A stretch of 4,674 nucleotides of DNA from a virus (Duplodnaviria > Heunggongvirae > Uroviricota > Caudoviricetes). The notes below the pieces were generated by a model. It ran no database searches. It was not told the DNA's origin and was given only the letters and a program-made list of their open reading frames with translations. Shown one piece after another: positions 1 through 4,674 of this stretch (the first letter of the stretch is position 1; every line of letters starts with the position of its first letter). Made by a program: the position numbers and the translations under genes. Location of the stretch: IMG/VR virus record IMGVR_UViG_2744054872_000006, positions 1 through 4,674 of that record. One strand, written 5' to 3'.

Positions 1-1263
1 TCAGCGAACGTAAATAGTGCCGCCGTTCTCTTTTTCCCATGCATCGCTACGTGCATAGCAAACATCGAGAAGTCTTCTTGCCGCAGTTTCCTCTAAACCC
101 AATTCGACAACCAACTGCTCATGACGGCGGGTAACCACATCAAACAGGGTATGCAGCCCTTTAGTTGCCAGATCATCAATGAATTCCGGTTCGAACGGCA
201 GCTCTGCATCTGCCAACATAACCTCTTGCGCCCACTCAACTCGACGGACCAATTCCGGGCGGCGGCTTTCCATCTCTTTACAGATCAATTCATGGAAGAA
301 CTCTACCCAACCTTCCGGCTGAAACTCGCGGAAAATTGCCAACGGCTGGAAGTTTGGCATCAACCATTCGTTGATTCGGATATCAATGGCATAGCCCATG
401 TCGCAGCAGAACTGATAAGCAAAGTCCAGCTTAGAAACGATATAAGGACGCTCGTTATTGAACTCTTTAGGCGATGAGATCCCATAAGCCAGGAGGCGCG
501 GGAAGAAGGAGATTTGCCCTAACGTCGGATGAAGTTTGCTTGCAGGGAAACGGCGCTCAGTAATGCCATACATTTCCTTCTTGAGCGTCGCAAATTTGGC
601 ATTCTCATTAACCAGCGCGGTAACCTCTGCTTTTTTATTAGCAAATGCCACGCGCGCCTCGCTTGCATCTTTAATAGTTTTTTTGAGCTGTTGGTTAAGG
701 TCGGCGACCTGCTTACGCAGTTCCTGTCGCTCGCTTTTAGCTTTGTTATAGCGTTTCTCAAGGTTAAAAGGATCAAGTTTCATGATCTCTTTATATTGAG
801 ATTTTAGCGTTGAAATCTGTAAGTTCCGCAGTTCAACCATCGCGGTCATTTCATTGAGTTTTGTTTCCAGCTCAATGCTTATACGTTCGGCATTATCAGC
901 ACGCTGGTTGGCGTCATGCGTCGCATCGTCGATCGCGTCCTGTTGCTGGCGTTTCAAATGTTCAATTTGCAGCTGAAGCTCTTCAATTTCTTTACCCTTC
1001 AGACCGAGATCCAACTGCATATTTTCAGCTGCATCTACCAGGGAGTTATGGCTATCAGCTTCTGCGTTATAAACATCAATAAGCTGTGCGTGAAGCATCT
1101 CCGCTGACTGAACCGCATTATCAAAAAAACGTGCTGTGAGGTCATCACAACTAACGCGGCGTTGCGCGGCCCGGATGTTCTGGATAATGGCCGGAATACC
1201 GGCATTCAGGACATCAGGGATAGATACATTTTCGATTGATTGGTTTTGTGCTGAAGTGCTCAT
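1..1263 (-). CDS. Hypothetical coiled-coil protein (420 aa) with a long heptad-like, charged N-terminal half and a globular C-terminal domain; function unknown
   Basis: Long uninterrupted ORF with ATG at 1263-1261 and TGA at 3-1. The N-terminal ~230 aa are rich in E/K/Q/L repeats typical of coiled coils. The start lies 1 nt downstream of the stop of the 72-aa ORF (TGAAATG on the minus strand), suggesting translational coupling. The window begins exactly at this stop codon. No family recognised. Confidence 0.7.
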   Translation of the reverse strand: MSTSAQNQSIENVSIPDVLNAGIPAIIQNIRAAQRRVSCDDLTARFFDNAVQSAEMLHAQLIDVYNAEADSHNSLVDAAENMQLDLGLKGKEIEELQLQIEHLKRQQQDAIDDATHDANQRADNAERISIELETKLNEMTAMVELRNLQISTLKSQYKEIMKLDPFNLEKRYNKAKSERQELRKQVADLNQQLKKTIKDASEARVAFANKKAEVTALVNENAKFATLKKEMYGITERRFPASKLHPTLGQISFFPRLLAYGISSPKEFNNERPYIVSKLDFAYQFCCDMGYAIDIRINEWLMPNFQPLAIFREFQPEGWVEFFHELICKEMESRRPELVRRVEWAQEVMLADAELPFEPEFIDDLATKGLHTLFDVVTRRHEQLVVELGLEETAARRLLDVCYARSDAWEKENGGTIYVR

Positions 1264-1264
1264 T

Positions 1265-1483
1265 TCAAAGTTCCGTATTAGCTTGTGCTTCGGTCATTTT
1301 TCCTAAGTATGAAGGTGGAAGGACTACGCAATTTGTATCCAGTCCCTCACCTATGGCAGCCTGTAAAATTCTGGCTAAGGTGAGTCTCTTGTTGCGATAC
1401 CTGGTGATGACATGCCTGATACCGCCGGTCGGCGTAACAAAGGCGATCAGCCAGTAGTGATATTTCCGTCGGAATGGCCACAT
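1265..1483 (-). CDS. Small hypothetical protein (72 aa), possibly co-translated with the downstream 420-aa protein
   Basis: ATG at 1483-1481 is preceded on the minus strand by AAGGTG (plus 1488-1493) with a 4-nt spacer. The TGA stop at 1267-1265 sits 1 nt from the ATG of the 420-aa gene. Co-directional with all other genes. Protein family not recognised. Confidence 0.45.
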   Translation of the reverse strand: MWPFRRKYHYWLIAFVTPTGGIRHVITRYRNKRLTLARILQAAIGEGLDTNCVVLPPSYLGKMTEAQANTEL

Positions 1484-1487
1484 AGTG

Positions 1488-1493
1488 CACCTT
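1488..1493 (-). promoter_or_regulatory. Shine-Dalgarno-like sequence (AAGGTG) for the 72-aa ORF
   Basis: The minus strand reads AAGGTGCACTATG, placing a purine-rich GGTG core 4-5 nt upstream of the ATG at 1483. Confidence 0.4.
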
Positions 1494-1506
1494 GTAGATT
1501 GCTCTG

Positions 1507-1534
1507 ATAAAAAACATGATGAGTGTACATCACG
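1507..1534 (-). terminator. Candidate intrinsic terminator or RNA hairpin between the glycosyltransferase-like gene and the 72-aa ORF
   Basis: The minus-strand RNA would read CGUGAUG-UACACU-CAUCAUG followed by UUUUUUAU: a 7-bp stem including one G:U pair, a 6-nt loop and a U6 tract. The stem is AU-rich and therefore weak. It lies in the only sizeable AT-rich intergenic gap (1484-1580). Confidence 0.3.
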
Positions 1535-1580
1535 TTTTAAAAATAATGAATTATTAGAGCAATATTATTCTGATTCTCGC

Positions 1581-2267
1581 TCAAAAAAATGAGCTGATAA
1601 GGGGAAGCCAATCCTCTGACACTTCGCGAGGTCGCGGTTTGCCGTGGAAAAAGATTATTCGGCAGTCTTTTGGTAATGCCCCATTCCCCCTGGAGTAACG
1701 CGCGCTCGCATATTTCGAACCAGGTTCCACAACATCGGCCTTGTAACTTACAAACCATCCCGGATACAGATCCTGAAATGCTGGTGTATCATCACCCATA
1801 ACCTTCCGCAAAAACCCCTGATCACCCCAGCATTCAGTAGTAACACAACGAGCAATCCAACCTTCCGGATCTTGCCAGAATGCACTCCAGATATGCGCTT
1901 TTACACTATTTGGTATCCACAGGGCACCGCTGCCACGATATTGTGGATGGTAAAAATCCCTAAGCATGGTGAAGCTGGTTGGTGGATTCTCTAGGATTGG
2001 GCGTATATCACCGGCAATAACCGTGTCCAAATCCAGATAGAACAGATCATCGGTTATATCCGGTCGGAACAACTCGATTTTCGCCCACCAGCCACGGCAC
2101 TTTTGCCACTGGTTGATCAATGGGACAACTTTGACGCCAGGTACATGTAAACGCTTCAGGTCTGTCAGGCAAATAATTTCATAGCCTTTTGGCAGTTGAT
2201 TAACCAGCCACTGCACATCGGAAGCGTTATAGTCACCACCAGAGCGAAGAACTAAAGCAATCTTCAT
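1581..2267 (-). CDS. Putative GT-A-fold glycosyltransferase (228 aa) with a DXD motif, GT8-like
   Basis: ATG at 2267-2265 overlaps the TGA of the upstream phosphatase gene (ATGA, 4-nt overlap), with GGTG 4 nt upstream. The protein has an N-terminal [12 protein letters not shown] strand, a [18 protein letters not shown] segment (YLDxDxxV...DI, like the DXD nucleotide-sugar/metal site of GT-A enzymes) and a C-terminal [10 protein letters not shown] resembling the HxxGxxKPW motif of GT8 enzymes. Assignment is by motif memory only. Confidence 0.6.
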
Positions 2268-2956
2268 GCTGCACCATCACCTTTCACTTTCATCAATGTC
2301 AGGTTTCCGCAAAATACGGCACCTGTGTCGATATAATGCTGATTCCAGAATGTCTTCGGGCTTTTCACCGGAGTGTGACCAAAGATAAAACGATCTGCGC
2401 CAGAAATTTCGCCACCAATATCATCCATCGAATCACTGATACGCTCGCGCGCCCAGACAACGTTGAAAAGCGGCACCTCCTTACCGAATTGATATTCATT
2501 ATCCGGATAGTCGGCATGGGCTATAACGATAGTTTCTTGCCCGGTGTTCAACTCAATGATATAGGGCAGTCGTCTTACCAACTCCACCAGCGCCCTGGCT
2601 AATATTTCCTGATCAGCGTCCAGCATGAAGAACCATTGACCGCCATTCATTAGCCAGTTATTCACGTTGCCATCTGGACTTAACGCATCAATCATCAGCC
2701 GCTCATGGTTCCCCATCACTGCCCTGAACCAGGGCATCTGCAATAGTTCCAGACATTCGACATTTTCAGTACCGCGATCGATAAGGTCGCCGACCGATAT
2801 CAGTAAATCCTGCGCCGGGTCAAAATCCACACGATGGAGTTCGGACATCAGTCTGGTGTAGCAACCATGCAGATCACCAACAACCCAGACATTCCTGTAT
2901 TTGGTACCGTCGATACGGTGATAAATTGTGGGTGCCATCATGTATTCTTCAGCCAT
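2264..2956 (-). CDS. Serine/threonine protein phosphatase, calcineurin-like metallophosphoesterase (lambda orf221/NinI-type)
   Basis: Contains the PPP-family motifs VVGDLHGCY (GDxHG), VGDLIDRG (GDxxDR) and GNHE, plus a downstream FGHTP. It aligns along its whole length with lambda phosphatase as I remember it ([56 protein letters not shown]). The true start may be the ATG at 2941 or 2938 rather than 2956: these would give ATGA or TGATG overlap with the upstream stop and an N-terminus matching lambda's length. Confidence 0.9.
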
Positions 2957-3564
2957 TCTTTAAGAGTCATCTGCGGAATACCTCCCATTTTCCCGCATGA
3001 AACAACGTCAATCTGTTCACGCGCAGACTGGAATAACAAAGGCAGGTGACTTAGATTTTTTGGCGTGCCGCCGGAGTGAACGCGTGGTTCTTGTGTAGCG
3101 TCAACGCCCACCAGGGCGACATGTTTGAATCCGATATGGAAAGCCAGGTTCAGAGCACCATATGCACTATTGCCGCTGGCAATTTCATTCTCATCTTCAC
3201 AAAGGCCGAAATGTGCGGACCAGCGCCACGCCCACCACTCGGGAGAATTCGTATTTTTTGGCTCCGTGCCGCGCTCAGCCACACGACGGAAGCACAGAAC
3301 GCCATCTCTGACTTCACGTTCTTTAACATCGGGTAGTGCCATGCAATAACAAACACCACGGCGACGGCGGCCACGACCAACGCGCCGCATATTGTCTGGC
3401 GATGGATCAAGGGTGAAAAAATAAGAAGCGCGGTTAAGCCAGTCGATGGCCCCATTGACCGCTATAATCGGCACTCCGCGCGGCGCAACAAAGTTTGCGG
3501 CGCTTGGGCCACTGCCGACGATAATAACGCGATCACTGCCTCTAAATTTATTCTTGGGAAACAT
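2938..3564 (-). CDS. GSGPS-motif Rossmann-like transferase, paralog B (208 aa); GT42 sialyltransferase-like / DUF115 (MptE/Maf-like) candidate
   Basis: ATG at 3564-3562 with AGGAG (plus 3577-3581) 12 nt upstream. Carries VIIVGSGPS near the N-terminus, then IIAVNG, then [26 protein letters not shown]. This pattern recalls Campylobacter Cst-II (AGNGPSL ... RCN ... TSGxxxxAxAxALGYKxIYLxGID). It is clearly paralogous to the adjacent upstream gene. Contains an arginine-rich insert, [16 protein letters not shown]. Confidence 0.7.
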
Positions 3565-4124
3565 TGAATTGCACTGCTCCTACTTGCATTCAAAATATGT
3601 AAATCTGCGTGTTTTTTGCGGGTATCCAGGAACTGCTGTTGCCATTTTGAAATAGACACCTGCGTTGGATTCCGTAGGGCTTGAGGGTGCGCGCCATGCC
3701 AATGAAGGCCGTTTTGCAGAGAACAGTCATAGCCGACTAATACCACTACTTCAGCCCCTGATTCAGCAGCCAGACTGATAGCCTGCGCGCCGCTATTTAC
3801 CCCTTCCGCCGGTCCACAATATCGCCTGTACTCCAACGAAAATGATTTCGCCGCCGCCAGGTTGGCTGTCACTTTGCGGAATCTCCCTCCCGGTATGGTG
3901 GATCCGTATTGCTTCCACCATGACAAATCACCGGCGTATAAGGCATAAATGTCATCGAACATCTGCCAGGAATTGTTAACCGCGATGATTGAACAGCCAG
4001 TTTTTTCTATAGCAGCACAGTCCTCACGAGTGAGTGACGGACCGCTACCGACACAAAAAACAGTCCTAGTCGCCCTGGGTGGTATGTTCATTCTCAGCTG
4101 CAAATTCAGCCTCCAGGCGAGCAT
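3462..4124 (-). CDS. GSGPS-motif Rossmann-like transferase, paralog A (220 aa); GT42 sialyltransferase-like / DUF115 (MptE/Maf-like) candidate
   Basis: Carries FCVGSGPSL, IIAVNN and NSGAQAISLAAESGAEVVVLVGYD motifs collinear with paralog B. The start is uncertain: the ATG at 4124 has no SD, and the internal ATG at 4091 (Met12) gives an N-terminus of similar length to paralog B. The 3' end overlaps paralog B by 103 nt in another frame. Confidence 0.7.
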   Translation of the reverse strand: MLAWRLNLQLRMNIPPRATRTVFCVGSGPSLTREDCAAIEKTGCSIIAVNNSWQMFDDIYALYAGDLSWWKQYGSTIPGGRFRKVTANLAAAKSFSLEYRRYCGPAEGVNSGAQAISLAAESGAEVVVLVGYDCSLQNGLHWHGAHPQALRNPTQVSISKWQQQFLDTRKKHADLHILNASRSSAIQCFPRINLEAVIALLSSAVAQAPQTLLRRAECRL

Positions 4125-4221
4125 TCATTTCAGCGATTACCGGGTCCACTACAGCATCTGCTTCCTGTTCATTACGCGGCATGATCGATGCCAGCGATTC
4201 ATAATTAGCCTTGAATGACAC
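4066..4221 (-). CDS. Candidate small acidic protein (51 aa from GTG at 4221, or 38 aa from ATG at 4182), not in the supplied ORF track
   Basis: Hand translation of the minus strand gives VSFKANYESLASIMPRNEQEADAVVDPVIAEMNARLEAEFAAENEHTTQGD, ending at TAG 4068-4066. GGGAG (plus 4229-4233) lies 7 nt upstream of the GTG at 4221-4219. The ORF fills the otherwise empty gap between the VRR-NUC gene and paralog A, and overlaps the annotated 5' end of paralog A. Confidence 0.25.
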   Translation of the reverse strand: MSFKANYESLASIMPRNEQEADAVVDPVIAEMNARLEAEFAAENEHTTQGD

Positions 4222-4240
4222 GATTATTCTCCCGATGTTA

Positions 4241-4267
4241 ATGTGCGCTATATCAAAGAGCGCATAT
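4241..4267. promoter_or_regulatory. Imperfect inverted repeat (ATGTGCGC-N11-GCGCATAT) just downstream of the VRR-NUC stop; possible operator or RNA hairpin
   Basis: 8-bp arms with one mismatch and an 11-nt TATAT-containing spacer, seen directly in the sequence. Not followed by a clean U-tract on the minus strand, so not a canonical terminator. Confidence 0.2.
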
Positions 4268-4287
4268 GCACTAATTAATTTATTATT

Positions 4288-4674
4288 TTAAGCAGCATAC
4301 AACCACTTGTCGCCGTTCAATACATGCTCAATAGCCTCACCCTTTTTAAGGCTTATGTATTCCAGGATGGCGGTTATCGCTTGTTCTGCACCATACGCAA
4401 GAACGACGTAGTAACCTTCCTCTCTAAGCCTGCGCATCCAGGCGATCTGCTCTTTCGTCGGGGCTTTACCATTTGGTTCTTTAAGCTCAATTCGCATGCC
4501 GTGATAAATACCGCATGCTTTATCGAGACTCATGTCCGGATAACCTTTTTTCTGCCCTTCAGCCTTCATTTTCCCGGCGGTTGCTTTTGAACGTTTCCCT
4601 GGCTTTGTTGAATAAATCGAACTTTTGCTGAGTTGAAGGATCAGATCACGCATCCTCCCGACAACACAGACCAT
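4288..4674 (-). CDS. VRR-NUC domain protein (PD-(D/E)xK-type nuclease, 128 aa)
   Basis: The segment GYPDMSL...GMRIELKEPNGKAPTKEQIAWMRRLREEGYYVVLAYGAEQA matches the VRR-NUC pattern: a PD motif, then E-x-K, then a Q-containing helix and a hydrophobic strand. TAA stop at 4290-4288. The ATG is the last 3 nt of the window, so the start cannot be checked against upstream sequence. Confidence 0.75.
   Translation of the reverse strand: MVCVVGRMRDLILQLSKSSIYSTKPGKRSKATAGKMKAEGQKKGYPDMSLDKACGIYHGMRIELKEPNGKAPTKEQIAWMRRLREEGYYVVLAYGAEQAITAILEYISLKKGEAIEHVLNGDKWLYAA

Follow-up and report, generated by a model that had tools for sequence, protein, structure and literature searches.

Bacteriophage P1 has long been known to carry a phosphatase gene, ppp, entered in its original record as 'ppp; serine/threonine protein phosphatase, by homology; 64 pct identical to phage lambda serine/threonine protein phosphatase'. 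The open reading frame (ORF) at positions 2264-2956 on the minus strand of the viral DNA analysed here (IMG/VR record IMGVR_UViG_2744054872_000006, a stretch of 4,674 nucleotides (nt) referred to as the window) is identified by its sequence as this already known gene, annotated since 2004. P1 Ppp (AAQ14060), P7 Ppp (AAQ07555), and the RefSeq protein WP_001567998.1 represent the same gene at 98-100% protein identity, and in P1 and P7 it occupies the same slot between pmgP and pmgQ, under the same operator and promoter as in the window, the differences being allelic only. The gene also serves as a conserved polymerase chain reaction marker for P1-like phage-plasmids (PMC9603915).

The lambda phosphatase is 64% identical to Ppp without gaps over 219 residues, and its metal ligands, catalytic His, and phosphate-binding Arg are all identical; the same catalytic mechanism is expected. 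The two differ in gene context, the lambda gene lying in the nin region beside ninG/ninH and Q (loci H51/H52) and that of P1 in a transferase operon, and P1 Ppp carries an N-terminal extension of 3 residues (or 8) relative to lambda. The Escherichia coli phosphatases PrpA (PphA) and PrpB belong to the same subfamily as Ppp, but their genes are chromosomal (e.g., locus L103, beside rsmF). Ppp scores below both NCBIfam equivalog cut-offs (279.3 against 326 for NF008516 and 238.8 against 332 for NF007425), which argues that it is a related phage-type paralog and not an ortholog of either. The orf97 phosphatase of phage D6 is 84-85% identical to Ppp at the protein level and 88% at the DNA level, and likewise starts at an ATGA overlap with the upstream gene; unlike ppp of P1, however, it is embedded in a group of small lambdoid-type ORFs that includes no homolog of PmgO, PmgP, or PmgQ, which shows the gene to move as a cassette.

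By megablast, positions 1-4600 of the window are 98.2-98.6% identical to P1, P7, and many P1-like elements (98.4-98.6% for P1, where the counterpart is 79116-83714), and we assign the window to a P1-like IncY phage-plasmid lineage (Punavirus P1 DNA). Every long ORF lies on the minus strand, in the order pmgM (3' part), pmgN, pmgO, pmgP, ppp, pmgQ, pmgR, and pmgS. The original prediction had described this region as lambdoid and nin-like, which does not hold: the locus is the P1 pmgN-pmgO-pmgP-ppp-pmgQ operon under C1, and Pfam and PHROG scans found no nin or Q homologs. With a probability of roughly 80%, we regard P1 ppp as an independent, mobile accessory protein phosphatase that is expressed from a transferase operon.

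The phosphatase and its occurrence apart from the transferases

The full ORF comprises 230 codons counted from its first ATG, and Ppp residue numbers in the motifs below follow that count; the preferred coding sequence (2264..2941, minus strand, stop TGA at 2266-2264) begins at the second ATG ('M6') and encodes a predicted lambda-type binuclear-metal Ser/Thr protein phosphatase of 225 amino acids (aa). Ppp scores 59.2 bits for Pfam Metallophos (PF00149), whose cut-off is 21.5, and matches PHROG 246, 'NinI-like serine-threonine phosphatase', at 2e-113. Its best solved structure is the lambda phosphatase 1G5B (E = 7e-95), aligned without gaps over residues 11-229 against 3-221, and in a global alignment 142 of 221 residues are identical (64%). 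All nine lambda residues checked (D20, H22, D49, R53, N75, H76, H139, R162, and H186) are identical in Ppp; the catalytic roles that we presume for them are those of the 1G5B structure paper. The GDxHG motif is present as GDLHG at residues 27-31, where D28 and H30 correspond to the metal ligands D20 and H22 of lambda; GDxxDRG as GDLIDRG at residues 56-62, with the bridging D57 and the phosphate-binding R61 in place of D49 and R53; and GNHE at residues 82-85, with the metal ligand N83 and the general acid H84 in place of N75 and H76. The C-terminal metal ligands H147 and H194, together with R170, are identical to lambda H139, H186, and Arg162. The original prediction of a real, intact lambda-type PPP phosphatase with its GDxHG/GDxxDR/GNHE metal ligands preserved is thus confirmed. 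Ppp can be classed as an intact lambda-phosphatase-subgroup metallophosphatase of the PPP superfamily, for which Mn2+-dependent activity would be expected and for which the catalytic mechanism may with confidence be modelled on that of the lambda enzyme. The gene is under purifying selection, with a ratio of nonsynonymous to synonymous substitution rates (dN/dS) of 0.20 against phage D6, the only comparison that gives a ratio, since dS is saturated against the more diverged loci L048 and L086, where dN is only 0.28-0.32. Its base composition shows no anomaly that would mark a recent insertion (GC content 0.484, against 0.479-0.522 in the neighbours).

The original prediction took the close overlap of ppp with putative transferase genes as a sign of a shared pathway, a claim that fails on co-occurrence. 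Using PmgQ loci from IMG/VR (80) and from a one-genome-per-species collection (71), among them 98 distant loci (30 viral and 68 genomic), we asked which neighbours travel together. Near-identical P1 loci all carry ppp, as do the moderately diverged L048 and L086, whose Ppp proteins are 67% and 59% identical. Among the distant loci, a PmgO- or PmgP-like (DUF115) gene stands beside or near PmgQ in 41 of the 98 (17 of 30 viral, 24 of 68 genomic), while a sensitive phmmer search for a PPP phosphatase near PmgQ found none in the 30 viral loci and one in the 68 genomic loci (L103), judged coincidental. We rejected this case as linkage: the phosphatase gene is pphA, a chromosomal neighbour of rsmF/yebU that runs on the opposite strand, at a distance of 2.4 kb from the transferase of a prophage remnant. 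In the P1-sized relatives L051 and L157/L158, the order PmgL-PmgM-PmgO-PmgP-PmgQ-PmgR is kept and ppp alone is missing, and in such ppp-less relatives pmgP overlaps pmgQ likewise. On the side of the phosphatase, D6 carries a Ppp 85% identical to that of P1 among its small lambdoid-type ORFs and without the transferases, and tblastn and profile searches of 80 lambda-phosphatase loci (839 kb) found relatives of PmgO, PmgP, or PmgQ in none. Of 50,697 phage records, 1380 contain a NinI-like phosphatase homolog, and these belong to many genera. The transferases form a conserved set and ppp is a lineage-specific insert, by the evidence of related phages a passenger rather than a working partner; the tight overlaps reflect operon gene packing and are no evidence of shared function.

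Start codon, gene overlaps, and operon

As originally predicted, the start of ppp is ambiguous on sequence alone, the ORF having three in-frame ATGs (2956, 2941, and 2938) that span 18 nt from first to last. The pmgP/ppp junction reads ...AAAGAATGGCTGAAGAATACATGATGGCA, in which the pmgP stop (2940-2938) and the second ATG overlap as ATGA and the third ATG follows directly; at the other end, the ppp stop (2266-2264) and the pmgQ ATG (2267-2265) overlap as ATGA as well. Use of the first ATG (2956-2954), as in the original P1 GenBank annotation (230 aa), would add five codons, MAEEY (2942..2956, minus strand), but this ATG is embedded in the codons for Glu and Trp in KEWLKNT(stop), the conserved end of PmgP. 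In L048, the corresponding position holds GTG followed by an in-frame TAA, so the ATGA start (MNPVYHRIDG) is the sole possibility there. L086 also has GTG at this position and lacks the third ATG, which is missing in 2 of 51 P1 variants too, and the only start common to P1, L048, and L086 is the second ATG. None of the three ATGs has a Shine-Dalgarno sequence (-0.9 to -1.5 kcal/mol, with -0.9 for the first), whereas the corresponding energies for pmgQ, pmgP, and pmgN range from -5.0 to -7.4 kcal/mol; this would fit termination-reinitiation. RefSeq, through the Prokaryotic Genome Annotation Pipeline, has WP_001567998.1 (225 aa) begin at the second ATG, in a plasmid whose sequence is identical to that of the window, and of the two annotations this is the one that comparison favours. 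On the combined grounds of ortholog conservation, the ATGA overlap, the missing Shine-Dalgarno sequence, and the RefSeq annotation, the start of ppp is best placed at the second ATG, window position 2941, yielding 225 aa.

Alignment to the lambda phosphatase, which had been proposed to fix the start, confirms the family and its residues but is uninformative on this point, because lambda Met1 falls opposite P1 Pro9 and P1 and D6 have unrelated N-terminal extensions; it is the P1-clade orthologs that point to the second ATG. The phosphatase had also been called translationally fused to its neighbours. It does overlap both of them as ATGA, but each gene is an ORF of its own, read in a different frame from the next, with the stop codon of one overlapping the start codon of the other; this arrangement suggests translational coupling and not fusion.

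The operon begins with the small gene pmgN (4066..4221, minus strand; 51 aa), which has a GTG start and the strongest Shine-Dalgarno sequence of the operon. Upstream of it lie the C1 repressor operator named 'Oppp' (Op83) in the P1 annotation (4265..4281, plus strand) and the predicted sigma-70 promoter PpmgN (-35 to -10 at 4294..4320, minus strand), each with one mismatch relative to P1. Both are intact in the window, and PpmgN is predicted to drive pmgN-pmgO-pmgP-ppp-pmgQ. A promoter scan found a promoter-like site at 4313-4285, consistent with the annotated PpmgN, and added nothing else; terminator-like matches from the same type of scan fall within coding sequences. At the other end, the C1 operators Op86b and Op86a with the promoter PpmgR (1498..1563) mark the 3' limit of the ppp operon and the start of pmgR-pmgS. 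Scans with PADLOC defence models and Rfam gave no match.

The P1 homology ends at 4600, inside pmgM, and the final 74 bases (4601-4674) are the end of an IS5-family (IS903-type) insertion sequence (IS), which makes the 128-aa ORF at 4288-4674 a pmgM-IS chimera. The same pmgM-IS junction occurs in at least 13 P1-like IncY plasmids from E. coli and Cronobacter, some of them with cargo such as fosA3 or dmsB. This insertion cuts the pmgN-pmgQ operon off from the upstream late promoter LPpmgL, leaving PpmgN as its sole annotated promoter.

Function of Ppp and competing explanations

As the most probable account, a mobile lambdoid NinI-type accessory gene would have been inserted between pmgP and pmgQ in an ancestor of the closer P1 relatives, the operon supplying the timing of its expression. 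In lytic development, the C1-repressed pmgN-pmgQ operon would express Ppp, whose translation would begin by termination-reinitiation where the pmgP stop and the second ATG (2941) form ATGA, giving the 225-aa protein. This PPP enzyme would hold two metal ions (Mn2+ type) in its active site, where metal-activated water would hydrolyse protein phosphate monoesters with the GNHE histidine as the general acid. It would act independently of PmgO, PmgP, and PmgQ, most probably on phosphorylated host or phage proteins. Most likely, Ppp is a protein phosphatase with host or phage phosphoproteins as its substrates in lytic growth, possibly directed against host kinases. According to CRISPR interference (CRISPRi) and deletion data, P1 plaque formation requires none of the genes ppp, pmgO, pmgP, and pmgQ (PMC10695390), and lambda NinI makes two-hybrid contacts with N and Q (PMC3224144); our literature search found no role for lambda NinI beyond these contacts.

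A more specific version of this account gives Ppp a role in anti-defence or host takeover, in which it would undo phosphorylation by host Ser/Thr kinases or phospho-His signalling, as in kinase-based abortive infection or envelope-stress signalling; we entertain it only tentatively. We know of no NinI-type enzyme for which a target kinase has been named, and PADLOC found no relationship to defence systems. Expression of ppp only after C1 derepression, as the annotated operator and promoter imply, its dispensability on laboratory E. coli, typical for anti-defence genes, and the wide spread of NinI-like phosphatases as accessory genes (the 1380 of 50,697 records noted above) would all fit, and phosphorylation-based phage-host conflict is documented (PMC13645617). 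A mycobacteriophage anti-defence 'metallophosphoesterase' was not used as an analogue, being described as a DNA-damaging enzyme (PMC12287305). The shared pathway, by contrast, in which Ppp would dephosphorylate a sugar-phosphate or nucleotide intermediate or free acceptor Ser/Thr residues for glycosylation, is very improbable: linked phosphatases number 0 in the 98 distant PmgQ loci although 41 keep a DUF115 partner, ppp is the one gene missing from the syntenic L051 and L157, and D6 and 80 of 80 lambdoid loci have the phosphatase but no transferases. An enzyme with 64% identity to the lambda phosphatase and with every active-site residue identical is also unlikely to have taken up a new substrate class.

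We consider it very improbable that Ppp acts on nucleic acids or nucleotides, either as a 2',3'-cyclic phosphodiesterase/3'-phosphatase for the healing of RNA ends that host anticodon nucleases have cut or as an ApaH-like Np4N hydrolase. The lambda phosphatase reportedly has 2',3'-cyclic phosphodiesterase activity in vitro (Keppetipola and Shuman in 2007), and Ppp has secondary matches to ApaH (E = 7e-11 to 2e-9 in the PDB, 1.5e-19 in NCBIfam), to bacterial Pnkp (6e-11), and to a PHROG 'RNA ligase' family (2e-12). These matches, however, span only the N-terminal metal-binding motifs (about residues 21-90), the best full-length matches being the protein phosphatases lambda PP, PrpA, and PrpB (279 and 239 bits for the latter two families), and Pfam and PHROG scans found no RNA ligase or kinase partner in the operon. 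A nucleotide- or RNA-directed activity, proposed on motif-level similarity to ApaH and Pnkp, is a weaker alternative.

Several points weigh against an independent protein phosphatase translated from the second ATG alone. Across P1 relatives down to about 59% identity (L086), ppp is kept in the same slot and overlaps both neighbours, which leaves room for a secondarily acquired functional tie, and its absence from L051 and L157 could be a loss instead of an ancestral absence. Protein substrates for P1 Ppp are proposed by homology. In L051, moreover, the same embedded ATG is the sole canonical start of the downstream gene, pmgQ, and for this reason some initiation may occur at the first ATG (2956) in P1 itself, as an additional start. 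The functional tie could take the form of co-option after capture, Ppp acting on the targets or donors of PmgO, PmgP, and PmgQ, for example by dephosphorylating Ser/Thr acceptor sites or a phospho-sugar linkage and thereby letting the three transferases glycosylate virion proteins. We hold this to be the least probable of the explanations considered; if true, it would reveal a classic model phage to have virion glycosylation gated by a phosphatase. An accessory protein phosphatase independent of the transferases remains our preferred explanation.

The neighbouring transferase genes

The original prediction of transferase-like neighbours stands, firmly for PmgQ and probably for PmgO and PmgP. 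For pmgQ (1581..2267, minus strand), predicted structure and motif conservation point to a GT8-like GT-A glycosyltransferase with a DLD (DxD) motif. Its AlphaFold 2 model has a predicted local distance difference test score (pLDDT) of 96.3, and its top Foldseek matches (E about 1e-8 to 1e-7, TM 0.5-0.6) are the GT8-family GT-A enzymes Skp1 alpha-galactosyltransferase (6mw5), glycogenin, and LgtC, which the model resembles. D79, L80, and D81 are invariant across 60 homologs. Pfam gave no match for PmgQ, and PF01501 membership was not seen at the sequence level; on the model, the GT8-type GT-A fold and glycosyltransferase-like nature of PmgQ are a firm prediction. At the extreme end of pmgQ (1581-1600), the window has a T7 homopolymer where P1 has T6, which shifts the frame, so that PmgQ ends in ...SSFF(stop) (228 aa) in the window and in ...SSFFERESE(stop) (233 aa) in P1; the window allele is also found in IMG/VR locus L004.

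The gene pmgP (2938..3564, minus strand; DUF115/MptE-like, PHROG 2111 with a cross-match to 4603) is a paralog of pmgO (3462..4124, minus strand), a putative Maf/sialyltransferase-like (DUF115) glycosyltransferase. Both proteins have MptE-like Pfam matches on the same motif (DUF115 family PF01973), in each case below threshold, and they are also joined by PHROG cross-matches. A natural fusion, the metagenomic protein P0171 (376 aa), combines a PmgO-like part (residues 6-181, 38% identical) with a PmgP-like part (188-373, 51% identical) and contains no phosphatase domain; by BLASTP, PmgP aligns to its PmgO-like half at 1e-7. Taken together, PmgO and PmgP are paralogs, their fusion in P0171 indicates that they act together, and 'glycosyltransferase-like' is a probable description for both. 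An hhalign comparison of PmgP with PmgO was rejected as a test of paralogy, as the match fell on columns contributed by P0171 alone. Sequence searches of PmgO and PmgP against PDB chains returned only chance-level matches, a level at which fold comparison is needed. The true start of PmgO probably lies downstream of the annotated one (4124): the model gives pLDDT < 50 for residues 1-16, the homologs are mostly 180-200 aa long and align only from about residue 20, and in its long form the gene shares 59 nt with pmgN; a candidate start is the later ATG at 4091 (MNIPPRATR...).

Although annotated in P1 as of 'putative morphogenetic function', pmgO, pmgP, and pmgQ have distant homologs that usually sit among capsid, connector, and tail genes, which suggests, by analogy, that they form a virion-glycosylation module. 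In six of seven sampled contexts (L155, L156, L240, L241, L242, and L243), a distant PmgQ-like GT8 gene lies within the head/tail morphogenesis block, flanked on one side by capsid or Mu-F genes and on the other by connector, head-completion, or tail genes; its frequent companions are a DUF115 gene, methyltransferases, or a polysaccharide pyruvyl transferase. Capsid-adjacent glycosyltransferases of mycobacteriophages were reportedly treated by Freeman et al. in 2023, and we know of no report of P1 virion glycosylation. A published comparison is provided by such mycobacteriophage glycosyltransferases (PMC11256854), and ppp, pmgN, pmgO, pmgP, and pmgQ go unmentioned in the main text of a paper on the P1 virion proteome (PMC9024508).

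Other transferase contexts vary. In the ppp-less P1 relative L157/L158, a CTP_transf_3 gene of the CMP-Kdo/CMP-sialic acid synthetase family (positions 11090-11845; CMP, cytidine monophosphate; Kdo, 3-deoxy-D-manno-oct-2-ulosonic acid) lies just 3' of the pmgS-like gene, which fits PmgO/PmgP-type Maf/sialyltransferase-like enzymes with a CMP-activated ulosonic acid donor. On a Salmonella enterica chromosome (L103, 6950-8256), a PmgQ-like transferase and a hexapeptide-repeat acetyltransferase stand between tail-fibre and tail-fibre-assembly genes in a prophage remnant, a further case of a transferase among virion or receptor-binding genes. A lone PmgQ homolog (49% identical) on a Pantoea-like chromosome (L244, 7001-7633) has the pyruvate dehydrogenase genes (lpdA side) as its neighbours on one side and acnB on the other, and phage genes are absent from the vicinity, indicating that the family is not exclusively viral.

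As a long-annotated, non-essential P1 gene, ppp has little significance alone, yet it is present in about 13% of complete E. coli genomes via P1-like phage-plasmids, and the comparison supplies a corrected start (225 aa, ATGA with pmgP) for a gene on which the GenBank and RefSeq annotations disagree. It also yields a clear negative: in this operon, overlapping genes do not imply a common pathway, and the behaviour of the phosphatase is that of a mobile cassette. For the substrate question of NinI-type phage phosphatases, P1 is a convenient phage, with a deletion library and CRISPRi tools at hand. More interesting than ppp itself is the side result, the lead that pmgO, pmgP, and pmgQ constitute a conserved transferase set that may glycosylate virions.

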